Shown here piece after piece: positions 1-12,764 of a DNA stretch of 12,765 nt; the stretch's first letter is position 1, and each line of letters begins with the position of its first letter. The stretch is taken from the IMG/VR virus record IMGVR_UViG_2529292922_000012, positions 1-12,765 of that record; one strand, 5' to 3'. Position numbers and translations under genes: made by a program. This stretch comes from a virus. Its lineage: Duplodnaviria > Heunggongvirae > Uroviricota > Caudoviricetes. Under the pieces are notes generated by a model. That model saw only the letters and a list, made by a program, of their open reading frames with translations, was not told the DNA's origin and did no database searches.

Positions 1-274
1 GTCCCATTGACCGAATATTAAGATAATGACTTCCTGTTAACCACCCCTGTATGCTTAAGATGACCCTTCCCGCATCCACACCTCGCCCATCATCCCAACC
101 ACGGATAAACTCACCGCGTAAATCCGGTAATTTATTGGTGGGGTAGGCCTTTGCCAGTTTGGGATACATTTCAGAAGAAAATGCTGCACCATTGCATTTT
201 AGCCAGCCCGTTGGTGGTGTTTCTAAGGGCCACGGAACGGGCACACCAACAGGCAGTGCAGAGCCTTCCCCTAA
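1..274 (-). CDS. Tail-fibre C-terminal cassette, 5' part only (continues past the left window edge); no start codon of its own
   Basis: Minus-strand frame open from ~274 to position 1. Translation begins ...LGEGSALPVGVPVPWP...DDGRGVDAGR like the two downstream cassettes, then diverges. Antisense of track ORF 159..362. Confidence 0.6.
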
Positions 275-329
275 ACCAACGTTTTCATGCCGCCCTTACG
301 ATATAATTAAACGCAATGTTACGAGGACG
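69..329. repeat. Direct repeat copy A (~260 bp) spanning a cassette boundary
   Basis: Near-identical to 508..768 at a constant 439-bp offset, with scattered substitutions. Confidence 0.9.
266..291. other. Candidate invertase crossover site (cix/mix/hix-like), copy 1
   Basis: TTCCCCTAAACCAACGTTTTCATGCC. Shares the AAACC-AA-(C/G)GTTT core with recalled hixL (TTCTTGAAAACCAAGGTTTTTGATAA). Sits at the 5' end of a cassette. Confidence 0.5.
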
Positions 330-713
330 AATGGTTACATAATTAACCCCATCACCTCGTGAAGGCCCTGCAAATGAAAAACGGGAAAATCCTGGTTGGT
401 TAGAAACAATTTGGTCATAGTTATTGATTGAATGACCAGACCCAATGTCGAAATTACCTCCGTAATGAGAAAAACTTGTACCATCCTGCCCTGAAAGCAG
501 GGTACGTCCCGCATCAATCCCGCGCCCATCATCCCAGCCACGGATAAATTCACCGCGTAAATCCGGTAATTTATTGGTGGGGTAGGCTTTTGCCAGTTTG
601 GGATACATTTCAGAAGAAAATGCTGCACCATTGCATTTTAGCCAGCCCGTTGGTGGTGTTTCTAAGGGCCACGGAACGGGCACACCAACAGGCAGTGCAG
701 AGCCTTCCCCCAA
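285..713 (-). CDS. Tail-fibre C-terminal variable cassette (collar-like conserved N-part, variable tip, conserved ...RPRNIAFNYIVRAA end)
   Basis: Track ORF, 142 aa. N-terminal ~65 aa near-identical to cassette 724..1185. The 'M' is a TTG inside the crossover-like site; the frame stays open a few codons upstream, so it is probably a 3' gene segment fused to a constant 5' part after inversion. Confidence 0.75.
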   Translation of the reverse strand: MGEGSALPVGVPVPWPLETPPTGWLKCNGAAFSSEMYPKLAKAYPTNKLPDLRGEFIRGWDDGRGIDAGRTLLSGQDGTSFSHYGGNFDIGSGHSINNYDQIVSNQPGFSRFSFAGPSRGDGVNYVTIRPRNIAFNYIVRAA

Positions 714-768
714 ACCAACGTTTTTATGCCGCCCTTACGATATAATTAAAGGCAATATTACGAGGACG
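508..768. repeat. Direct repeat copy B (~260 bp)
   Basis: Aligns with 69..329 and, more divergently, with 982..1197. Confidence 0.9.
705..730. other. Candidate invertase crossover site, copy 2
   Basis: TTCCCCCAAACCAACGTTTTTATGCC. Imperfect dyad around a central AA, same orientation as copy 1. Confidence 0.55.
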
Positions 769-1185
769 GTTTTCATTAGCTGTTGGCACGACACGAGAGG
801 CGTCGAATCCAAGGTCATCGGTTTTGCCTATATCAGTTGTGTTATTCGGCATTCTCGCAGATCGTGTTCCTGCATCATAAAAAGCCCCTCTGATTGCATC
901 AAAAGACATGCCAATCCCGCCATCTGCGAACCCCTCAATATTTCTTATTGCATCCCCCTGTGAAGATAATAATTGTCGCCCGGCATCCACACCACGTCCG
1001 TCATCCCAGCCACGAATAAATTCACCGCGTAAATCCGGCAATTTATTAGTAGGGTAAGCCTTTGCCAGATTTGGGTACTTTTCAGAAGAAAATGCTGCTC
1101 CGTTACATTTCAGCCACCCCGTTGGCGGAGTGGCTGAGGGCCACGGAACAGGTACGCCAACGGGCAGTGCTGAGCCTTCCCCCAA
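724..1185 (-). CDS. Tail-fibre C-terminal variable cassette, proximal to the invertase gene
   Basis: Track ORF, 153 aa. Same conserved N-part (GEGSALPVGVPVPWP..TPPTGWLKCNGAAFSSE..AKAYPTNKLPDLRGEFIRGWDDGRG) and same C-terminal NIAFNYIVRAA as 285..713, with a different middle. Begins at TTG inside the crossover-like site. Confidence 0.75.
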   Translation of the reverse strand: MGEGSALPVGVPVPWPSATPPTGWLKCNGAAFSSEKYPNLAKAYPTNKLPDLRGEFIRGWDDGRGVDAGRQLLSSQGDAIRNIEGFADGGIGMSFDAIRGAFYDAGTRSARMPNNTTDIGKTDDLGFDASRVVPTANENRPRNIAFNYIVRAA

Positions 1186-1197
1186 ACCAACGTTTTA
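982..1197. repeat. Direct repeat copy C (~215 bp, more diverged; homology stops at the crossover-like site)
   Basis: Aligns with copies A and B from 'catcccagccacg' to 'caaaccaacgtttt', then diverges toward the invertase gene. Confidence 0.85.
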
Positions 1198-1203
1198 GTC
1201 TTA
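1178..1203. other. Candidate invertase crossover site, copy 3 (right boundary of the invertible region, ~55 bp upstream of the invertase start)
   Basis: TTCCCCCAAACCAACGTTTTAGTCTT. Repeat homology ends exactly here. Arrangement mirrors gixR-gin and cixR-cin. Confidence 0.55.
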
Positions 1204-1256
1204 ATCCCTACCTATACCAACGATGTATTTTTAACTAAACAAAGAGGTTGTTTTTC

Positions 1257-1829
1257 ATGCAAATTGGCTACATTCGTGTGTCAACAAATGACCAAAACAC
1301 AGATTTACAAAGAAATGCACTGAACTGCGCAGGATGTGAACTGATTTTTGAAGATAAAATAAGCGGAACAAAGTCAGCCAGACCAGGCTTGAAAAAGCTG
1401 CTCAGAACGTTATCAGAAGGAGATACGCTGGTTGTCTGGAAGCTGGATAGGCTTGGCAGAAGTATGAAACACCTTATCACGCTTATAGAGGAGTTGCGGG
1501 AAAAAGGTGTTAATTTCCGTAGTCTGACAGACAGTATTGACACATCAACACCCATGGGGCGTTTCTTTTTTCATGTCATGGGTGCTTTAGCAGAAATGGA
1601 ACGTGAATTAATTGTTGAGAGAACACTGGCCGGACTGGCAGCTGCACGCGAACAGGGACGCATTGGCGGACGTCGCCCGAAGTTGACAAAAGAACAACAT
1701 GAGCAAATAGCGAGGTTGATCGAAAATGGCTACAGCAGGAAACAGTTGGCAATTATTTACGATATCGGTGTATCGACGATTTATCGTTATCATCCTGTAG
1801 AGAAGCGCCAAACTCAATCTGAGCTGTAA
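1257..1829 (+). CDS. cin: Serine recombinase, Hin/Gin/Cin/Pin/Min-family DNA invertase
   Basis: MQIGYIRVSTNDQNTDLQ...VVWKLDRLGRSMKHL...SLTDSIDTSTPMGRFFFHVMGALAEMERELIVERT...GRIGGRRPKL plus C-terminal HTH: canonical invertase motifs with catalytic Ser in IGYIRVST. The track starts at an upstream TTG (1248); I chose the internal ATG, which gives the family-typical N-terminus. Symbol reflects P1-like context. Confidence 0.9.
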   Translation: MQIGYIRVSTNDQNTDLQRNALNCAGCELIFEDKISGTKSARPGLKKLLRTLSEGDTLVVWKLDRLGRSMKHLITLIEELREKGVNFRSLTDSIDTSTPMGRFFFHVMGALAEMERELIVERTLAGLAAAREQGRIGGRRPKLTKEQHEQIARLIENGYSRKQLAIIYDIGVSTIYRYHPVEKRQTQSEL

Positions 1830-1951
1830 TTCTAATGCCGCGTCGGTGTAATTTATCTTGATAGAATAGGTACATTTATCGCGCGGCACATCAATTCGAT
1901 GTATCTAGCGCCTGCTGACCGCTAATGAAAACTGTTCTCGAAATGTTGTCC

Positions 1952-1970
1952 CTAGTCCGAGACTAGGGTA
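1952..1970. repeat. Perfect 8-bp inverted repeat CCCTAGTC-cga-GACTAGGG in the intergenic region
   Basis: Seen directly. No U-tract on either side, so more likely a protein-binding dyad or RNA structure than an intrinsic terminator. Confidence 0.4.
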
Positions 1971-2264
1971 TCACCTCTGGAAAGCATACGCAGAACCTTT
2001 TTTAACCCAGGGTGCCCAGCTTTTTTGCTGCTCGCCTTATTCGCAAAAATTAGCTCACATCCTGCGCTTTCAAGTGCTTTTCACTGCATAGCTGTGTTTT
2101 GTTCATTTGTCTATATGCGTACATAGCCTATTAGCATATTTTCTGCCCACTATCGTTATTTATTGCAAGCTACAGGTTTTAATTAACAAAACCAGTGTGT
2201 GTGGAAATCACAAAGTGCATACCGTTCTCAAATGTTGTTCAACTTACTGTTGTATAGGTAAAAA

Positions 2265-2528
2265 ATGACATTTTATGTACATATCGTGATGTTATCCCTT
2301 CTTGGTGGGGTGTATTCGTATTTGAGTGGGCTATGTGAAAACCGTTACGAGTCTTCATGCAAGAAATTGCTGGCCGAATGTATTTCCGCCGTACTTGCTG
2401 GCTTTATTGGCATGTATCTCGCGGAATATAAGGACATGAATGAAAGCCTTCAGAGCTGCATGGTTCTTATTTTCAGCGCCAATAGCAGGCTTATTATTGA
2501 AGGTTCCAAAAGTCGGTTGAATAGGTAA
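2265..2528 (+). CDS. Hypothetical small protein with two hydrophobic segments
   Basis: Track ORF, 87 aa. Weak SD (AGGT ~9 nt upstream). Hydrophobic stretches IVMLSLLGGVYSYLSGL and ISAVLAGFIGMYLA. No recognised family. Confidence 0.3.
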   Translation: MTFYVHIVMLSLLGGVYSYLSGLCENRYESSCKKLLAECISAVLAGFIGMYLAEYKDMNESLQSCMVLIFSANSRLIIEGSKSRLNR

Positions 2529-2602
2529 GTCTCTTATGCAACATAACCGGTTGAGAAGTTACTTTGCATACCATTACCTCCTGACAACGTAGGAGGGAAC
2601 TT

Positions 2603-2932
2603 GTGCTTGACACACAGGAATTAGCTCCAGTTGCTATTGCGCTCCTGCTTTCAGTAATTGGTGGGATAGGCACGTTCCTGATGGATGTCCGAGACGGTCG
2701 CCAGTCTGGCAATTTGTTGGGATTGGTTACGGAGATCTTTGTTGCAGTGACAGCTGGCGCGGTGGCGTACCTATTGGGGCAACACGAGGGCTGGGAGTTA
2801 TCAATTACGTACTTAATGGTAACGATAGCCAGCAATAACGGTCATGAGGTGATTTCAGGGATGAAACGAGTGAATATCGATAGCATTCTGAATGTTCTTA
2901 CAAGTTTGGTGAAAAAGGGAGGCGGGAAATGA
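2603..2932 (+). CDS. lydA: Holin-like small membrane protein; LydA-like first gene of the lysis/dar operon
   Basis: Strong SD AGGAGGG 6 nt before GTG start. 109 aa with 2-3 predicted TM segments and a charged C-terminus (KKGGGK), which is holin architecture. Position after cin matches my recollection of P1. Confidence 0.55.
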   Translation: MLDTQELAPVAIALLLSVIGGIGTFLMDVRDGRQSGNLLGLVTEIFVAVTAGAVAYLLGQHEGWELSITYLMVTIASNNGHEVISGMKRVNIDSILNVLTSLVKKGGGK

Positions 2933-3372
2933 TTGGCTGGGGTGTATGCGTTCTTGCGTTAGCCTTAGCCGATCGCTATTTGCTAAAACGCAAGGACATC
3001 ACGCATTTAGAACTTGGTGATGTGGAAATTAAACCGGGTTTCATCCGGGTGCCGTTCAAATACCGGTCTAAATTCCCGTTTTTGCGCGGCGCAACGGTCA
3101 GATATTGGATCCGCGATGTTCAGAAGCCGACGACAGTGATTGAAGGCGAACAACGTTGTTTGACGTCGGCTGAACAGGGCGAAAACAGTGAATGGTTGTA
3201 CATACCCACTGAATATATGGGTAAAGGAGAGCGACTGTGGCATTTCAACGTCATGGTTACGCATGGCGACTCGTTCATTAACCCGTTGTATCGGATTTTC
3301 CCTGTTACTCAGCAAATCCGCAGAAGTTACGTAATAAATCTCGCACAGGATGTGTCAGATGACGAAAAATAA
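2929..3372 (+). CDS. lydB: LydB-like protein (putative holin antagonist) with N-terminal hydrophobic segment
   Basis: ATGA overlap with the preceding stop. SD GGGAGG. 147 aa. Named by synteny only. Confidence 0.45.
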   Translation: MIGWGVCVLALALADRYLLKRKDITHLELGDVEIKPGFIRVPFKYRSKFPFLRGATVRYWIRDVQKPTTVIEGEQRCLTSAEQGENSEWLYIPTEYMGKGERLWHFNVMVTHGDSFINPLYRIFPVTQQIRRSYVINLAQDVSDDEK

Positions 3373-3961
3373 GTATGCAACGGTCGATTTTGACCAGGTT
3401 AATGAAAAGGGGCTGAAATCCCTTATCGCGGCGATCAATAAAACCGGTGTTACGGTAATTGAGGTTGACTCCAGCAACCGCGCAACAACGAAAGATGGCG
3501 TTAAAGTTAAAACCGCAAAGCTGGTTCTTAACGACGGACAAATTCTTGCCATACAGGTAAACGATACTGGCGATATATCGTCTGTGAGGCTGAATGGAAA
3601 AGCTATTCCTAACGCTCAGTCGCCGGATATCAAGACGCTTGGTACCGTCATGGGGCAAGCGGCCCGCAAAAACTCCGCAAAATTCCAGAAATCACTGATC
3701 GCCAAAGCGAAACGTGTTGCCAATCCGGTAGACAAGAAACCGGCAGTAAAATCCAACTTTCAGCGCCTGCAAGAGGCAAAACAGCGGAATGCTCAGGTGG
3801 TTGCCGCTTATAAATCAGCGCAGAACTCGGTGTCTTTCAATCAACAGCAGATCACTGATTTGCGGGCGAAGCTGGATAAGGAGACAGGCCGACTCAATAA
3901 CGAAAAGGCCCGAAATGGCGAACTCAAACGCCGTCTTAAGCAACTGAAAGCAGGAAATTAA
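3359..3961 (+). CDS. hdf: Hdf-like protein (homologue of a DarA fragment), coiled-coil C-terminus
   Basis: Shares a segment with the next protein (..ARKNSAKFQKSLIAKAK.. versus ..AEKNSAKFQRAQKKKKA..), also visible at DNA level. Start ambiguous: 3350 or 3359; overlaps the lydB 3' end. Confidence 0.6.
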   Translation: MTKNKYATVDFDQVNEKGLKSLIAAINKTGVTVIEVDSSNRATTKDGVKVKTAKLVLNDGQILAIQVNDTGDISSVRLNGKAIPNAQSPDIKTLGTVMGQAARKNSAKFQKSLIAKAKRVANPVDKKPAVKSNFQRLQEAKQRNAQVVAAYKSAQNSVSFNQQQITDLRAKLDKETGRLNNEKARNGELKRRLKQLKAGN

Positions 3962-3962
3962 C

Positions 3963-5882
3963 ATGGAACAGTTCAATATCAATAAAGGGGTGACGATCAA
4001 GCCTGGGCTTGACGTGCTTCCCCCGCCAGTGACTGATGATGAATATCGCGCATTAATGGCCGGTGAGGACCGCTATCTGATGACGGAATCCAACACCCTG
4101 GAGGAAATCGAGGCTACGTTCTTCTATGACACGCCGATCCACTGGTGTGCTACGGATTTACTGGAGGCGATTAGTTCTACTCGTTTGCAGTTACACCGGA
4201 CCATGCAGGCATTTGTCCGGGCATTGAACCAGAAGCTGAATGGTACCGGAATCTCTGCGGGGAGTGATAAAACGGGGGATGTGGCCCAGAGCGGCGCGCG
4301 CGCGATCGGCGGTGCTGAAATTGGCCGGGCACGTAACGTTAACGGGCTGCCGGTCCTGCCAGCCATTATTCCGCTCAGTGATGGTCAGACTATCAGCATT
4401 CTGTTTCATAGCCCGACAGCGGAAAACCGGATCACCAATAGCGATACGCTGGTTGCTTTCCAGTTCTTACTGAATAAAAAAGACGTTACTCACACCGTTG
4501 CTCCGATGAGTGGACGTGATATGACGCTGGCGCAGGTCACCATGAAACTTGCCAACCTTGCAGAGAAAAACTCGGCAAAATTTCAGCGTGCGCAGAAGAA
4601 GAAAAAAGCCCTTGTTGATGAAATAACCCAACTACAGGCTGACAGTGACCAGAAAGAGGATGCCATGAGCGACCTCGTGGATCAGGTGGCAGCGGTAGAA
4701 GGGCAGAAGGTAGATCTGGAGCAGAAAATTAACGCTGTTGCATCGGAAGCGGATTCTCTTTATGAAGAGAATGAGCGTTTGCAGACGGAGATTGATCAGC
4801 TCAATCGCACTGGTGGGCGCGATACCATTGCTCCTGCGGGGATGACTGGTGGACACTCTCGCGCGATGACGGATCGCCTTGCCAGTATCAAAAATCGTAT
4901 GCATATGAACGGGGAAGTGACGCTCAGTAATGGTGCATCAATGAAGCAATTCATTGAGGACGGCGAAGGGTATATCCAGTTAACCGATTCGGATGGCAGC
5001 GTGTACATGATCAAGGCTAAATCCATACAGGGTGTGGACATGGCAGATGCGATCGGCAAGCTGTTTAAAGCCTATAAAGCGGGTAATGTATCGGAATACC
5101 TGGTCCAACCAGAAGAACATAAACCGGAAAACGTCGAACCTGAACCAGCGGAGGATACCGGTAGCTCTTCGCCTGAACCAGAAGTCTCTGTAGGTGCATA
5201 TCGATATGCCCTGCAAATGCGTCCGGCGGCCCCTGGCGCAATACCTGAAGGTAACAAAGCAATTCTGCCGCGCCCTGATGAAGGTGACCCGTATTATGAA
5301 TATGCACGCTACGGCATTGCTACTTACGATACCCCGCTTTCTGATCAGCAAATGAGTGAGTACGACCTGAAGTTATTGCCTCGCGAGGATTCTTTCGACT
5401 TCCTGGCGAAGACACTTACTAATGGTCCGTTTGGCAAATATGCACAAAAAGCTCTGGAGCTGGCCACCAGCTCACCAGACGAGTTCCGCGTAATGCTGAA
5501 AACTCAGTTTCAAAAAACTTTCCCCAATATTGCGTTTCCGGGGGGCGCTGGCACCGAGAAAATGGTGCAGAGCATGATCAATGCATTGCAGGCCGAAGTC
5601 GGTGAGATTACTCAGCCAGAACCTGCCCCGGCACAGCCTGATGAAACGGTTAGCGAAGCAGATGCAGAGGCTAATAAAGCCATTGAATATCTCAATAACG
5701 TGATGGATATGCAAAGCACTGACATGGCGGAGATCCGTAACGCCCGGGGTAATGTCCGGGAAGCGATTGCAGCCCTTCAGGCTGCCGGGCGTTTTGAGGA
5801 AAACGAAGAGCTGGTTAATGGCGCTGCTCGCCACTTGGCTGATCTGCTGGTAGCAATCCAGAAAGCGGGGGTAGCGGCATGA
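3963..5882 (+). CDS. darA: DarA-like anti-restriction / head-internal protein
   Basis: 639 aa. ATG 2 nt after the hdf stop, with SD AGGAA. Central coiled coil, Pro/Glu-rich linker. Named from size, position and paralogy with hdf. Confidence 0.6.
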   Translation: MEQFNINKGVTIKPGLDVLPPPVTDDEYRALMAGEDRYLMTESNTLEEIEATFFYDTPIHWCATDLLEAISSTRLQLHRTMQAFVRALNQKLNGTGISAGSDKTGDVAQSGARAIGGAEIGRARNVNGLPVLPAIIPLSDGQTISILFHSPTAENRITNSDTLVAFQFLLNKKDVTHTVAPMSGRDMTLAQVTMKLANLAEKNSAKFQRAQKKKKALVDEITQLQADSDQKEDAMSDLVDQVAAVEGQKVDLEQKINAVASEADSLYEENERLQTEIDQLNRTGGRDTIAPAGMTGGHSRAMTDRLASIKNRMHMNGEVTLSNGASMKQFIEDGEGYIQLTDSDGSVYMIKAKSIQGVDMADAIGKLFKAYKAGNVSEYLVQPEEHKPENVEPEPAEDTGSSSPEPEVSVGAYRYALQMRPAAPGAIPEGNKAILPRPDEGDPYYEYARYGIATYDTPLSDQQMSEYDLKLLPREDSFDFLAKTLTNGPFGKYAQKALELATSSPDEFRVMLKTQFQKTFPNIAFPGGAGTEKMVQSMINALQAEVGEITQPEPAPAQPDETVSEADAEANKAIEYLNNVMDMQSTDMAEIRNARGNVREAIAALQAAGRFEENEELVNGAARHLADLLVAIQKAGVAA

Positions 5883-6244
5883 CACTATCAGCTATTGAGT
5901 TAATGGATCTCAGCGATAAGTTGGATGCTTTGATGTCCAAAGCGGCTACCGCGAGTGGCATGGAGTTGCTGGATATCAGCGATGAAATTGACCAGATCAT
6001 GCAACAGATGGGGTACGGTGTGTCCGGCGGCAGTAGTGGCGAGGAAAAACAACCTTCGGTACATGATGGTGTGCCAAAACTGGTTGCTGATTTCCTGGCT
6101 GATAAATTCGTCGATCAGAGCACCGATGCATTTATCGGTACCTTGCAGGATTTGAGTCAATATGTTGGCACATACATCGACCTGGACCAGGTTAAACAGC
6201 ACACGGCGGCATGGATAGCCGCCAACATTAAAGAGGCAGCATAA
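5879..6244 (+). CDS. ddrA: DdrA-like small acidic protein
   Basis: ATGA overlap with the darA stop. 121 aa. Named by synteny. Confidence 0.5.
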   Translation: MTLSAIELMDLSDKLDALMSKAATASGMELLDISDEIDQIMQQMGYGVSGGSSGEEKQPSVHDGVPKLVADFLADKFVDQSTDAFIGTLQDLSQYVGTYIDLDQVKQHTAAWIAANIKEAA

Positions 6245-6256
6245 GGCGTAACAGGG

Positions 6257-9244
6257 ATGAGCTTAAGCGATCAGGTGGTAATGGCCACCAGCATAGAAAC
6301 GCTGATCGAGCTGCTAAAGAACCTGCCCGATTATGGGCGGGTTTCGTATGTGGTGACAGCGAAGGGAGACGAGGTAAAAACAGCGTTTGATATCGTCGAT
6401 GCCTCAGCTCTTTTGGTATCCAATACTCTGGATGGGAAAATTAATCCTGACTATCCCCAGGAACTTCAGCCGCGCGACCGGACCCGCGCATCCAGCCTTC
6501 TTCAGGTTAACCAGATATCCAAAGATTTGCGGCCTGCTCAGCTTACTGATTCCGGTTTATCCAGCCATGGTGCGCCGATAATTGGTGAGGACAATGCCGT
6601 TGAGTCTGGTAATGGACGGACCATGGGGATCATCAAAGCCTATCAGGACGGCAATGCGGATCGGTATCGTGAGTACCTGATTGATCATGCGACCGAATTC
6701 GGCATACGACCTGAAAAGGTTGAATCAATGACGGCTCCGGTACTGGTGCGCCGCCGGTTAACCAAGGTTGACCGCGTTCAGTTTGCCAAGGACTCAAATA
6801 TTTCTGATCTTCAGGAAATGGCAGCCAGTGAAAAGGCTTTTGTTGATGCCGACAGCATAACACCGGCGATGATGGCGCTTTTTAACCCGTCAGAAAGCGG
6901 AGATCTGCTTAGCCGCAGTAATGACGCGTTTATTCGCGGATTTATGACGCAAGTTGGTGCCACACAGGCGGCTGGCCTTGTAACGGAAGATGGGCGACCA
7001 ACGCGGCAACTTGTTGACCGTATACAAAACGCGATCTTTGCCAAGGCATATAAGGATGCGCGCCTGGTAAGGATGGTTGCAGAAGAACCTGATCCGGATA
7101 TGCGTAATGTTCTGACGGCGCTTAATGCGGCAGCCAATGATTTTGTCCAGATGCAGGCTTTATCAGGAGAAGCGCACAAGCAGGCTGTGACAACTATTGT
7201 TGATGGCATTGAGACAGCGGATAGCCTCGATAAAAAGGCGCTGGCGGCATTGAAAGATGCGGTAGACCTGGTAAGGCAATCGAAGGAGTCAGGCCAGCAT
7301 ATTACCGATGTTATTGCTCAGGGGGATATGTTCAGCGAAACGGCCCCGGAAGTGAAAGCACTCGCGTTGTTCATCGTCGCGAATAACCGTAGCGCGAAGC
7401 GTATGGCCACCGCCTTTAAGTTGATGGCTCAACGTATCAATGATGAGTTACAGCACCAGGGCCAGGCGCTGGGGGATATGTTTGGCGGTGGTGATGTGTC
7501 GTTACAGGATATCCTTCGCCAGGTGTCTCAGGAACTGGAAAACGAAGGCATGCAAGGGATATCCGGCGGTCTTTTCGAGTCCGTTTCCGGCGGTAGTTAC
7601 AATGGTGTTGCTCCATATACCAGTTTGCTATTACATCGGGCATCCGGCATCAAAGACATTATTCATCTGATCAGGCTGCTTTCCCGTACAGATCCCCAGG
7701 ATGAACAGCTTGTACAAGTGCTTGCGCATTTTGTTCGAATGCCTGTTGCCGACGTGAAAAAATGGTGCCGATTATTCGGTATCAGCAATTCGTTACTTCG
7801 CGGCTTGTTAAATCACGCATCCTCCCTTGGGCGCGATGGCTTTGACGAGATAGCGCAGGCGATAAAAAACGGAGATATGCCACCAGCTATTGACTGGTTT
7901 TCCATTCGCCCAACCAGGGTGAAAGCATTCCTTAGCGCGGCGCATTCGGCATCACCATTGGCAGAAATGGTTCAGAGGTTGTCGCTCATATTCACAGACC
8001 ATACCGCGTTGGGTGATCTGACTCTGGACGAGATGAAAGAAGCCTCCATTCAGTGGGCCGATCAACAAAATGAGGTTAACTCTGACTTCTTGCCAGCATT
8101 CAGGAAGGCCGTTAGTAAAGCGGATGATGCCCGTGGAATTCTGAGGGCATTTAAGGCATTGCAAAGTCAGGTTAATAAACATGTCGGTGATATCGATGGG
8201 GTAACGGCGGAAGGCAGGGATATCCTTAAAGAGCACGGCATAACGCCAGAGTTTATTGATGAGATCAGGACTGATATGCAGCGTGAGGTCGTATCGTCCC
8301 TGCAAATCGTAGCCAGAGCGTTGGCGGATGCTAATCCGAAGAGTGCGGCCATTGTTAACCGTGTTATTGGTGATATTGAAGCATCGGAGGGCATGGGGGC
8401 GCTGAAACTCTTCCTTTCGCGAGCGTTTAATCCTAACGGCAATATTCTCCCCGGCATTATTGGTGAGGCTAAAAAGTATGTCAGCGAAGAAGAACTTGAG
8501 CAGCTTGACCAACTACTTAAGCGATTCTCATATAACCCGCAGACACGCTGGCAAATGAATCAGCGAAGTATGGGTTCGGTCCACGAGAAAGTGTTATCTG
8601 CCATGAACAGTGCGATCGCAAACTCATCCGTATCTGAAGAAAAAGCTCTTGAGTGGGCCGACTCTTTTATCACGGAAGAAGTGGAAGAAGCCCGCGCTGG
8701 ACAGAATGGTGGGATAGACCTGCGCAAGGAACTTGCTGATATTTATCGCCTGACCGGCGGGAAAATATCGACATTATCAAAGGTAGTTCACCACCAGGGA
8801 AGGGCATATGCAAATCTTAATGGTGTTGTTGCTGTCAATTTGAACGATGAAAATGCAAGTGCACTGTGGCACGAGCTGGGTCATCATCTTGAGTACAGTA
8901 ACCCTGGTTTGTTAGAGAAAGCCCGGTCATTCCTGAAGGCCAATGTTGAAGGGGATAAGCCATCTTTCGTCAATATCGGTGGGCGTGGCAAGCCTGAATG
9001 GTGCTTCAGATCTCGATTGAGTAATATTTATATGGCGAAGGTATACCCGCCAGCCTCAGTAAGTAACACCGGGAAAATTCGGCAGAAATCACCGACTATT
9101 TCCAAAACGTCAGCAACGGAAGTATTCTCTATGGCTCTTCAGTTGTATCATGACAAAGAGGCCGCTGCCGCATCACTGATGAATGGTGACGGATTGCTGG
9201 AACTGTTATTAGGTGTGGCAAAGGAGCTAAATAATGCAGATTAA
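6257..9244 (+). CDS. ddrB: DdrB-like large protein: ParB/Srx-like N-terminal signature plus C-terminal HExxH (zincin-like) motif
   Basis: 995 aa. ELQPRDR...GAPIIGEDNAVESGNGRTMGI resembles ParB boxes (QPR / GxxR). HELGHH at aa 872-877 (nt 8870-8887). Long helical middle. Confidence 0.6.
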   Translation: MSLSDQVVMATSIETLIELLKNLPDYGRVSYVVTAKGDEVKTAFDIVDASALLVSNTLDGKINPDYPQELQPRDRTRASSLLQVNQISKDLRPAQLTDSGLSSHGAPIIGEDNAVESGNGRTMGIIKAYQDGNADRYREYLIDHATEFGIRPEKVESMTAPVLVRRRLTKVDRVQFAKDSNISDLQEMAASEKAFVDADSITPAMMALFNPSESGDLLSRSNDAFIRGFMTQVGATQAAGLVTEDGRPTRQLVDRIQNAIFAKAYKDARLVRMVAEEPDPDMRNVLTALNAAANDFVQMQALSGEAHKQAVTTIVDGIETADSLDKKALAALKDAVDLVRQSKESGQHITDVIAQGDMFSETAPEVKALALFIVANNRSAKRMATAFKLMAQRINDELQHQGQALGDMFGGGDVSLQDILRQVSQELENEGMQGISGGLFESVSGGSYNGVAPYTSLLLHRASGIKDIIHLIRLLSRTDPQDEQLVQVLAHFVRMPVADVKKWCRLFGISNSLLRGLLNHASSLGRDGFDEIAQAIKNGDMPPAIDWFSIRPTRVKAFLSAAHSASPLAEMVQRLSLIFTDHTALGDLTLDEMKEASIQWADQQNEVNSDFLPAFRKAVSKADDARGILRAFKALQSQVNKHVGDIDGVTAEGRDILKEHGITPEFIDEIRTDMQREVVSSLQIVARALADANPKSAAIVNRVIGDIEASEGMGALKLFLSRAFNPNGNILPGIIGEAKKYVSEEELEQLDQLLKRFSYNPQTRWQMNQRSMGSVHEKVLSAMNSAIANSSVSEEKALEWADSFITEEVEEARAGQNGGIDLRKELADIYRLTGGKISTLSKVVHHQGRAYANLNGVVAVNLNDENASALWHELGHHLEYSNPGLLEKARSFLKANVEGDKPSFVNIGGRGKPEWCFRSRLSNIYMAKVYPPASVSNTGKIRQKSPTISKTSATEVFSMALQLYHDKEAAAASLMNGDGLLELLLGVAKELNNAD

Positions 9245-9545
9245 AATCGCAGCGCCATTAGGCGGAGATGCCATTATCGAATTTGATGATAATGAAGAAG
9301 TTTCCGGGCGTTTAAGCATTATCTCCGGTGACATTACCGAGGACATGATCGCTGAAGCCATAGCTGGGGCAAATCCCAATAGCTATATGGGATTCGTTAA
9401 CACCCTTGATGCTCCCGCAAGTGATGTTCTCCGAACGCTGCATCTTTACGCTGGCTGGTTTGTTGATTGGCCAGCAGTAGATGGTGGCGATGAGGACGAC
9501 GACGACGATGATTTTGGTGATCATGTAGACCAGATCGTATATTGA
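9234..9545 (+). CDS. Small protein with highly acidic C-terminus, translationally coupled to ddrB
   Basis: ATG overlaps the ddrB 3' end. SD AAGGAG 7 nt upstream. 103 aa ending DGGDEDDDDDDFGDHVDQIVY. Last gene before the terminator. Confidence 0.55.
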   Translation: MQIKIAAPLGGDAIIEFDDNEEVSGRLSIISGDITEDMIAEAIAGANPNSYMGFVNTLDAPASDVLRTLHLYAGWFVDWPAVDGGDEDDDDDDFGDHVDQIVY

Positions 9546-9574
9546 AGAAATCCCGCCAATTGGCGGGATTTTTA
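9546..9574. terminator. Bidirectional rho-independent terminator between convergent genes
   Basis: AAATCCCGCC-aatt-GGCGGGATTT 10-bp GC-rich stem followed by a T-run on the + strand and ATTTCTTC on the - strand. Lies exactly between the stops at 9545 and 9577. Confidence 0.7.
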
Positions 9575-9576
9575 CC

Positions 9577-10663
9577 TCACGAGAAACTCTTTTCTGATGT
9601 CAGCCAACAGTGCTCGTGCATATCTCTTGGTGGTTTTTCGACAAATGCCTCTTCAGCCACATCCTGCCAGGGGATTTGTTTAGCCCATTCAGTTATAGCG
9701 TTATGGTTTGCCGAGAATAACGGTATTGTATAGGCCTTCAGCCAGTCTAATGTGCTGGAGTTGTGTTTTTGAGCGTGATGTTTCGCATGGTGTTTGGCGA
9801 TCACGATCGTAGGCACTACCCATTTACTACCGTCAGTCATTGTGAAGTGCATATTACGGGGAACAGATGACTTTTCCATCAACTCCCGAATCCCGGGGAA
9901 TTTCCCCAAGATCAATCGGCGATATTCATCGCTATTGCGTCCACCAAACTCTTTGGCTTTGAATTCAAGATATGCTTCAGAAACGAGAGGTGAATCCTCT
10001 GTGTTTAGAGTTATCGCCGTGAAAAAACCAGCAGGATTGTTTTTACTATGGGCCAACCGGTGATGCGAATCATAAAAGTACCCTTTCTCGCGTTCCGATG
10101 GTTTCGACAGCAACAGCAGGCGCGAGTCATAATTGGTTAAATTGCCAGTTATCACTGCATGAGCGCGATCGCTGATTTCCGCCGAGTTAATAACGATGAA
10201 AAGATCGTGCGGTCCAGTAAAACCAGCCAGAGACTCTTCGTTATTCAGACAATAGGTTATATAGACGCATCCCCATGTTTCACTGATATGCACCAACCCT
10301 TTGTCAGGGTGTATTCTGAAATAATTGCCAAGAAAAGGGTGTTTTTGGGTAACTCGCTCCCAATAACGGAACATATAGTCAATTATTGTTTTTCGACTAT
10401 CGTTAATCGCAGGAGAAACAACCACTGTACGGGAACACGAATACAGTATTGTTTGCAGGATGCTAATCACTGCCACAATAGAGGTTTCCCCAATACCATG
10501 TGGTGTGGTGGCAGTGACTTTGGCTCCGGTGTTCTTTATCGCGTTAATAATTTTTGCTTGATGAGGTGTTAACTCAATATCAAGCAACTCTTTTGCTGCC
10601 AGTTCCCAATTGTCTTTATACCGTTCTATCAGTGCTAACCAGGCAGATTCATTCTGTATACGA

Positions 10664-10671
<8 letters not shown>
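9577..10671 (-). CDS. Terminase-large-subunit-like P-loop ATPase-domain protein with degenerate Walker A/B; no nuclease domain apparent
   Basis: Track ORF, 364 aa, GTG start with SD GAGGTGG. Motif order PHQ...TTPHGIGETS...DLFIVINSAE...LLLLSKPSE resembles the adenine-Q / Walker A / Walker B / C-motif layout of terminase ATPases as I recall it. His-rich patch AKHHAKHHAQKH. Confidence 0.5.

Positions 10672-12764
<2,093 letters not shown>

Follow-up and report, generated by a model that had tools for sequence, protein, structure and literature searches.

The question raised by this locus is whether the products of two neighboring genes, one short and one long, descend from a single ancestor and, if so, over which part of their length this can be recognized. 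The initial annotation had proposed an internal paralogy by ancient partial duplication for a 203-aa and a 639-aa protein in the window (the whole stretch of DNA analyzed here, 12,765 nucleotides), both of which were said to carry a KNSAKFQ-centred segment followed by a coiled-coil region.

Identity of the locus and layout of the two proteins

Judged from its sequence, the region corresponds to hdf and darA of a P1-like phage-plasmid, and the products are orthologues of P1 Hdf and DarA. Over positions 3300-5950, DNA identity was 98.2% to P1 and 99.8% to phage vB_EcoM-Ro157c2YLVW, and the gene order lydA-lydB-hdf-darA-ddrA-ddrB matched that of P1. Hdf had 98.5% protein identity to P1 Hdf, i.e. 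three substitutions in 203 residues, scored 406 bits against PDB 9ukm_H and matched phrog_1620 ('Hdf-like antirestriction') with E 4e-80. It thereby combines the high identity and the place between lydB and darA that characterize the P1 orthologue. DarA scored 1377 bits against PDB 9ukm_I over residues 1-639, with about 98% identity, and likewise combines high identity with the DarA_N plus DarA_C architecture. The naming of both genes after P1 was borne out by the DNA identity, the synteny and the matches to PDB 9ukm. The 203-aa form of Hdf exists as described, but it starts at 3350; position 3359, where the start had been placed, is the second in-frame ATG and yields 200 aa. The features are as follows.

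3350-3961, + strand: hdf (odaE in P7), open reading frame of 203 aa, internal head protein, short DarA paralog
3386-3676, + strand: DarA_N domain of Hdf, residues 13-109 (Pfam PF18788, E 1.5e-21, 76.9 bits)
3668-3688, + strand: KNSAKFQ motif in Hdf, residues 107-113, inside helix 94-124
3755-3949, + strand: C-terminal long α-helix of Hdf, residues 136-200 (AF2; cryo-EM model of Hdf 135-203)
3963-5882, + strand: darA, 639 aa, internal head protein, defence against restriction (open reading frame, P1 annotation, Pfam DarA_N and DarA_C)
3963-4169, + strand: N-terminal segment of DarA, residues 1-69, missing from the cryo-EM model and with no Hdf counterpart
4158-4574, + strand: DarA_N domain of DarA, residues 66-204 (Pfam PF18788, E 3.8e-42, 143.4 bits; alignments)
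4566-4586, + strand: KNSAKFQ motif in DarA, residues 202-208 (sequence match)
4587-4808, + strand: α-helix domain of DarA, residues about 209-282 (hhalign, charge, cryo-EM description)
4830-5108, + strand: penton-binding domain of DarA, residues about 290-382 (cryo-EM model 70-382; the start at about 290 is an estimate, just past the helix), with no Hdf counterpart
5193-5378, + strand: DarA_C domain, residues 411-472 (Pfam PF18789, E 5.7e-17), with no Hdf counterpart

Only Hdf-type sequences went into the AF2 model of Hdf, which reached a pLDDT of 79.7. In this model the DarA_N domain comprised helix 23-30, four β-strands located between residues 36 and 81, and the first part of helix 94-124, in line with the α+β fold predicted for this family by Iyer et al. 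2017; for the Hdf N-domain, the fold is itself a prediction. In the cryo-EM map this N-domain stayed below atomic resolution (PMC12810830). Residues G63, Q64, L81 and N82 of Hdf were conserved in its family. A conserved Asp signature and an N-x-basic signature were present and aligned in both proteins, as D62-G63-Q64 and N82-G83-K84 in Hdf and as D140-G141-Q142 and N171-K172-K173 in DarA. That these DGQ and N-x-[KR] residues would be the motifs named by Iyer et al. is our own reading of the alignment.

MAFFT lined up the N-terminus of Hdf with DarA at about residue 62. The cryo-EM model of DarA spans residues 70-382, and its loops 321-326 and 342-346 contact the penton; the DarA_N domain of DarA was named the hexon-binding domain; for the part before residue 70, a cleaved fragment of about 9 kDa was cited and removal by the prohead protease proposed (PMC12810830). 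The DarA copy of DarA_N has extra loops relative to Hdf, and no similarity was detected between Hdf and DarA 301-639 (score 32 versus 35.3 ± 5.7). Hdf is essentially the bare module, corresponding to DarA residues about 62-285. DarA has the same module with additions: a probably cleaved N-terminal segment, the extra sheet loops, the penton-binding domain and the C-terminal region.

Common ancestry and the place of the shared motif

We are highly confident that Hdf and DarA of this P1-like phage-plasmid derive from one ancestral module, namely a DarA_N α/β domain, built of one helix, a four-stranded sheet and a last helix closed by an N-x3-F motif (KNSAKFQ in this case), with a long α-helix behind it. 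The proposed duplication was supported by shuffled controls, Pfam, profile alignment, Foldseek and a tree. BLASTP aligned Hdf 44-115 with DarA 122-210 (31% identity, E 8e-4). In the pairwise comparison against shuffled controls that had been suggested as a check, the real Smith-Waterman score of 81 lay above every shuffle, with 42.9 ± 6.7 for shuffled Hdf, 40.2 ± 6.0 for shuffled DarA and 0/1000 reaching 81 in each set. Both proteins passed the PF18788 gathering cut-off of 27 bits. When the two families were compared by hhalign, Hdf 43-201 was collinear with DarA 121-282 (probability 98.2%, E 5.7e-14). A Foldseek search of the PDB with the Hdf model returned DarA chains as the only significant matches, 9vz0_I (E 1.8e-6) and 9ukm_I (E 2.8e-5), and the Hdf-DarA alignment ran end to end over 199 columns.

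The description of the similarity as KNSAKFQ-centred held only in part. The motif is indeed common to both proteins, but the demonstrable homology is that of the whole DarA_N α/β domain upstream, which ends at the motif (Hdf 13-109, DarA 66-204). With the motif excluded, Hdf 1-106 against DarA 61-201 still scored 46, above shuffles at 28.8 ± 5.0, of which 19/2000 reached this value. As for KNSAKFQ itself, in Hdf it represents the form that an N-x3-F signature of the whole family takes in P1: N108 was conserved at 71% and F112 at 79% among 95 aligned Hdf-type sequences (the window Hdf and 94 representatives), and [KR]N[ST]xxF was found in all 15 DarA-type homologues examined.

The likeness of the underlying DNA was confirmed, with 19/21 identical bases between the two 21-mers, although the second site lies 2 nt off the 'about 4568-4588' given earlier. 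When the window was shuffled 200 times with dinucleotides preserved, no shuffle yielded two matches at up to three mismatches. The DNA match nevertheless contributes nothing beyond the conserved peptide, because the 5/7 identical codons compare with 3.1 expected from operon codon usage (P(>=5) = 0.135).

Could the similarity have arisen without common ancestry, as a short motif joined by convergence or chance to two unrelated coiled coils? The low pairwise identity of Hdf and DarA would allow for this, as would the helical parts, whose scores did not stand out from those of shuffled, rotated or reversed controls. However, the domain upstream beats its shuffles without any help from the motif, a curated Pfam model matches both proteins, the profile-profile probability is 98% and, an independent structure prediction of Hdf had one strong match in the whole PDB, solved DarA; we consider such an origin extremely improbable. 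Another conceivable source of the shared KNSAKFQ and its 19/21 DNA match is a short, recent event of gene conversion between the two neighboring genes, either added to old ancestry or replacing it. Seven identical residues do stand out from a background identity of about 22-31%. Moreover, an Hdf motif exactly identical to that of DarA is confined to the P1 lineage, since Hdf of other P1-like lineages carries NNSVKFR, RNTVKFT or DNSKRFT. On the other hand, four of the seven motif positions (N, S/T, K and F) are family-conserved in both the Hdf-type and the DarA-type clade, the codon identity is unremarkable given the peptide, and the DNA flanking the 21-mer lacks similarity that would extend the match. 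Unsupported by the codon-identity test, gene conversion at the motif was rejected and seems very unlikely to us. We infer that purifying selection on the last helix of the domain, not recent DNA exchange, has kept the motif.

The long helices and the age of the duplication

In each protein the motif is indeed succeeded by a long helix, as had been described, but what the two helices share is generic coiled-coil similarity, not demonstrable homology. Helix 136-200 of Hdf was predicted with a pLDDT of 85-94, and the matches of DarA 183-277, to designed coiled coils and to troponin, were weak. The cryo-EM model includes both helices (PMC12810830). Although hhalign paired Hdf 136-201 with DarA 217-282, the helix segments alone were not significant in pairwise comparison with shuffles (p about 0.16-0.33). 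The helix-only profile-profile score of 35.4 was significant against column shuffles; this signal was discarded after cyclically rotated (29-35) and reversed (27.8) controls. Neither pairwise comparison nor hhalign with these controls revealed position-specific sequence similarity between the helices of Hdf and DarA, and their homology is read from collinearity only.

It could then be argued that only the DarA_N domain was duplicated and that the long helices were gained independently in the two lineages, any capsid-lining partner needing one. The missing position-specific signal is compatible with this, and Hdf has a proline-containing linker between domain and helix (residues 125-134) that DarA lacks. 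Yet both clades show the domain, the motif and the long helix in one collinear order, as seen in 95 Hdf-type sequences (185-225 aa), in the distant metagenomic phage L003 and in the DarA-type sequences P0079-P0086, and the Foldseek alignment runs end to end. Independent gain is accordingly an unlikely account, and we favor duplication of domain and helix together.

The net helix charge in the P1 clade was about +10 for Hdf and about -7 to -8 for DarA. More distant P1-like pairs had +1/-4 and +4/-8, and phage L003 had 0/+1. Charge complementarity was dropped as a general rule, and the mode of helix pairing may not be general across Hdf/DarA-type pairs since complementarity was strong in the P1 clade only.

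The duplication is old. In a neighbour-joining tree of the core domain, Hdf-type and DarA-type sequences split in 200/200 bootstraps, and the short and long genes of L003 fell into different clades. The change may have gone in either direction, by trimming of Hdf or by extension of DarA. We surveyed viral contigs by a search with a DarA-type alignment having a distant lead member and then scanned the loci with home-built HMMs. An Hdf-type ORF was present in 62 of 80 diverse contigs carrying a DarA-type gene, always upstream and on the same strand, and directly adjacent in 42. At the other 18 DarA-type loci no Hdf-type ORF was found within 5 kb, nor was one found at three further loci (Methylomonas prophage L091, L093 and L092). 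A viral scan with the Hdf alignment recovered near-identical P1-like loci only, and among cultured phages the tblastn hits were limited to P1-like phages and D6.

Function in the head and comparison with known systems

DarA-Hdf pairs were solved by cryo-EM in the P1 head in 2026 (PDB 9ukm, 9vz0; PMC12810830; preprint 10.1101/2025.11.26.689930), so that an experimental structure exists for the heterodimer whose prediction had been suggested as a check. They line the inner capsid surface at penton-hexon junctions. Residues 135-203 form the α-helix domain of Hdf, which makes a parallel bundle of long helices with DarA, held by opposite charge, and the N-domains face the DNA (PMC12810830). The net charges that we calculated for the helices (+10 and -7/-8) fit the electrostatic complementarity reported there (PMC12810830). 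Virions that lack either Hdf or DarA are reported to be devoid of every Dar anti-restriction protein, and head size is disturbed as well (cited in PMC12810830 and PMC9024508).

The paralogy is correct but in substance already known: it is contained in the gene name ('homolog of darA fragment'), in Pfam PF18788, in Iyer et al. 2017 and in the cryo-EM structure of 2026. For annotation, the gain is that hdf and darA can be named with confidence and that the motif they share can be taken to mark where the DarA_N domain ends, not the centre of homology. The breadth of the tandem pair is a modest step beyond the published statements we found, which describe it for P1-like phages only. Somewhat tentatively, at a little less than even chances, we propose that a short and a long DarA_N paralog form a widespread ancient two-gene capsid-docking module, in which most phages carrying a DarA-type domain, often as the leading part of a giant polyvalent injected protein, encode just upstream an Hdf-type partner of about 165-210 aa that anchors cargo to the inner capsid wall. 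In many phages this old module would be placed before, or fused to, injected cargo proteins. If so, the short and long pair would be no peculiarity of P1, and an Hdf-type partner would be needed for cargo anchoring. The Hdf-type gene preceding the DarA-type gene, often ahead of giant polyvalent proteins, could guide work on the loading of large anti-defence cargo into heads.

In hdf and darA, the element of the window differs from P1 by point substitutions only, and the KNSAKFQ motif and gene order are the same in P1 (PDB 9ukm chains H and I; 9vz0). Other parts differ in the arrangement of the invertase and tail-fibre cassette, in an additional ORF of 364 aa and in an insertion of IS21. Hdf and DarA share the conserved Asp (DGQ) and N-x-[KR] signatures of the DarA_N family, the 'DarA-N' of Iyer, Burroughs, Anand, de Souza and Aravind 2017 (PF18788; PMC5512222). 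In many other phages the DarA-type copy sits inside giant polyvalent proteins, as InPase + DarA_N, DarA_N + MutS_I + LPD3 or DarA_N + ddrB-ParB, whereas in the present operon DarA is 639 aa long and DdrB has a gene of its own. T4 directs its internal proteins to the head by a short capsid-targeting sequence rather than by a capsid-lining heterodimer of paralogs. Like Hdf and DarA, however, T4 internal proteins such as IPI* are packaged in the head and injected with the DNA against host restriction (PMC12810830), a likeness in the outline of function.

The hdf-darA region and its surroundings

The genes hdf and darA, so named in phage P1, lie within a series of plus-strand genes whose order is identical to that of P1.

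Features of the window (coordinates, strand, description)
285-713 and 724-1185, -, Collar-domain ORFs, 5' ends overlapped by repeat copies
1248-1829, +, serine invertase (Resolvase + HTH_7)
2265-2528, +, lydC-like
2603-2932, +, lydA
2929-3372, +, lydB
3350-3961, +, hdf, 203-aa ORF, P1 annotation at the same place
3963-5882, +, darA, 639-aa ORF, P1 annotation at the same place
5879-6244, +, ddrA
6257-9244, +, ddrB
9234-9545, +, 103-aa ORF, phrog_2292 (function unknown), at the position of P1 hxr
10897-11919, istA, rve integrase core, IS21-family element
11916-12698, istB, IstB_IS21, IS21-family element

Over positions 3300-5950, identity was 98.2% with phage P1 and 99.8% with phage vB_EcoM-Ro157c2YLVW. 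In the whole-window comparison, phage-plasmids of the P1 type from E. coli and Klebsiella matched positions 68-10810 at about 98.5%; since these relatives match only to 10810, the IS21 insertion (10897-12698) appears specific to this element. Both proteins matched PDB entries 9ukm and 9vz0, where chain H is Hdf and chain I is DarA; Hdf differs by three substitutions, DarA by about a dozen. The heterodimer that the initial annotation suggested for structure prediction has already been solved experimentally.

The 203-aa protein had been taken to start at 3359. The ATG there, the second in frame, with AGGA 8 nt upstream, gives 200 aa; the 203-aa form begins at 3350, with a 23-nt overlap with lydB and an AGG immediately before its ATG. 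Most protein clusters have the shorter form, as do several database records; P1 and the PDB have the longer one, and the start (3347-3361) is ambiguous between the two ATGs. An E. coli plasmid protein of 196 aa (P0045) had both termini identical to Hdf and an unrelated middle part; the record seems to contain either a double frameshift or a sequencing error.

Upstream, a unit of about 262 nt was present in three direct copies, at 68-329, 507-768 (96%) and 979-1240 (76%). The second and third copies each overlap, at its 5' end, an ORF on the minus strand; both ORFs begin with MGEGSALPVGVPVPWP and encode a phage tail Collar domain. Positions 68-1829 look like a multi-cassette tail-fibre shufflon of the p15B/Min kind rather than the single C segment of P1, and the invertase is oriented relative to the lyd/dar genes opposite to cin in P1. 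Downstream, a minus-strand ORF of 364 aa (9577-10671) fell into phrog_5902 (unknown function), had no Pfam match and weakly resembled terminase large subunits (phrog_2, E 3.6e-9). P1 lacks this ORF here, its hxr being followed by isaB, part of an IS1 region.

Similarity between Hdf and DarA

The initial annotation proposed an ancient partial duplication, to be judged by whether the two proteins align better than shuffled controls. BLASTP aligned Hdf 44-115 with DarA 122-210 at 31% identity (E 8e-4). The Smith-Waterman score was 81, against 42.9 ± 6.7 for shuffled Hdf and 40.2 ± 6.0 for shuffled DarA; no shuffle in two sets of 1000 reached it (Gumbel p about 1e-4 to 5e-4). The similarity therefore exceeds chance. 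Its distribution along the proteins was uneven.

Segment-wise alignment scores (segments, score, shuffled score, shuffles reaching the score)
Hdf 1-106 vs DarA 61-201, without the motif: 46, 28.8 ± 5.0, 19/2000
Hdf 1-116 vs DarA 61-211, with the motif: 65, 29.7 ± 5.1, 0/2000
Hdf 114-203 vs DarA 209-300, after the motif: 35, 29.9 ± 5.6, 374/2000
Hdf vs DarA 301-639, control: 32, 35.3 ± 5.7, 1450/2000

By these scores the region as a whole lies above the shuffles, and the coiled-coil part, taken alone, does not. Profile comparison of the helices alone (hhalign) gave 35.4 against 7.7 ± 1.8 for column-shuffled controls. We rejected this difference as a sign of homology, as Hdf helix columns cyclically rotated with the heptad rhythm kept scored 29-35, and the reversed helix 27.8. 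The helix similarity is at the level expected of any two coiled coils, a generic nature that goes slightly beyond the literature consulted; that the helix belongs to the duplicated unit we infer from collinearity, not from its sequence.

PF18788 (DarA_N) matched Hdf 13-109 with 76.9 bits and DarA 66-204 with 143.4 bits, both passing the curated cut-off of 27 bits; DarA_C was found at DarA 411-472. With homologues gathered separately for each protein, hhalign aligned Hdf 43-201 collinearly with DarA 121-282 (probability 98.2%, E 5.7e-14). An AlphaFold2 model of Hdf computed from Hdf-type sequences only (mean pLDDT 79.7) had a short helix, four β-strands and two further helices, 94-124 with the motif and the long 136-200. 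When Foldseek compared the model with all PDB chains, significant matches were limited to 9vz0_I (E 1.8e-6) and 9ukm_I (E 2.8e-5), both DarA, over 199 columns at 21-22% identity. The multiple alignment placed the N-terminus of Hdf opposite DarA residue ~62, near residue 70, where cryo-EM-visible mature DarA begins (PMC12810830). From its aligned ends, Hdf is the counterpart of DarA residues about 62-285.

KNSAKFQ was indeed present in both proteins, at Hdf 107-113 (nt 3668-3688) and DarA 202-208. The DNA likeness noted by the initial annotation held for 19 of 21 bases, the second copy lying at 4566-4586 rather than 4568-4588, and no dinucleotide-preserving shuffle of the window had two such 21-mer matches. 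Five of the seven codons were identical, against 3.1 expected from operon codon usage (probability of at least five, 0.135), and DNA similarity stopped at the ends of the 21-mer. The DNA match follows from the conservation of the peptide. In an alignment of 95 Hdf-type sequences 185-225 aa long (94 representatives plus the Hdf of the window), N108 was conserved in 71% and F112 in 79%, and [KR]N[ST]xxF occurred in 15/15 DarA-type homologues; an N-x3-F signature thus runs through the family, in the last helix of DarA_N, and KNSAKFQ is its P1 form. Two further shared signatures, DGQ (Hdf 62-64, DarA 140-142) and L-N-x-[KR] (Hdf 81-84, DarA 170-173), agree with the conserved Asp and the 'NX+' motif that Iyer et al. 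2017 (PMC5512222) reported for DarA-N.

Pairing in the P1 head

In P1, 55 DarA-Hdf pairs sit on the inner capsid at penton-hexon junctions; their α-helix domains form a parallel bundle of complementary charge contacting the capsid, the positive face of the N-domains is turned to the DNA, and the pairs exit the head together with it (PMC12810830). Deletion of either gene, as cited in PMC12810830 and PMC9024508, yields virions that lack every Dar protein, and disturbs head size. The paralog pair may be a docking module by which injected anti-restriction cargo is fixed to the wall of the capsid. Our computed helix charges, +10 for Hdf and -7/-8 for DarA, fit the reported bundle. Complementarity was weaker in more distant P1-like pairs (+1/-4, +4/-8) and absent in L003, a distant metagenomic phage (0/+1), so the pairing mode may differ elsewhere.

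Age and spread of the duplication

In a neighbour-joining tree built on the core domain, Hdf-type and DarA-type sequences separated in 200/200 bootstraps, with the two L003 genes on opposite sides. Together with the shared PF18788 domain, the profile alignment and the Foldseek matches to DarA, this supports the ancient duplication. The paralogy is correct and already known; it is implied by the gene name, which stands for 'homolog of DarA fragment'.

Searching 1.84 billion representative proteins with the Hdf profile gave 311 clusters at E <= 1e-3. The 150 matches listed included 146 new representatives, all Hdf-type rather than DarA-type by score, 90 of them 190-215 aa long. Among 80 diverse viral contigs retrieved by a DarA-type alignment, 62 carried an Hdf-type ORF; in every case it shared the strand of the DarA-type gene and lay upstream of it, in 42 directly adjacent. 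Three further loci of the DarA type (Methylomonas prophage L091, L093, and L092) had no Hdf-type neighbour. The tandem pair is widespread outside P1-like phages, which goes slightly beyond the literature consulted. In all four long ORFs checked, the DarA-type domain lay within a giant polyvalent protein (InPase + DarA_N twice, DarA_N + MutS_I + LPD3, DarA_N + ddrB-ParB).

In a distant metagenomic phage (L003-L005), an Hdf-type gene (176 aa) and a DarA-type gene (402 aa) precede a helicase/methylase protein of 2100-2500 aa (L003:5461-13209; also L004, L005), like DarB in domain content and in one version with a LAGLIDADG match. These three genes stand in a row; in P1, darA and darB are not neighbours. 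The genes darA and ddrB are separate genes of one operon in the window and in P1, whereas a single 1351-aa ORF in another contig (L136:4959-9011) fuses DarA_N with ddrB-ParB.
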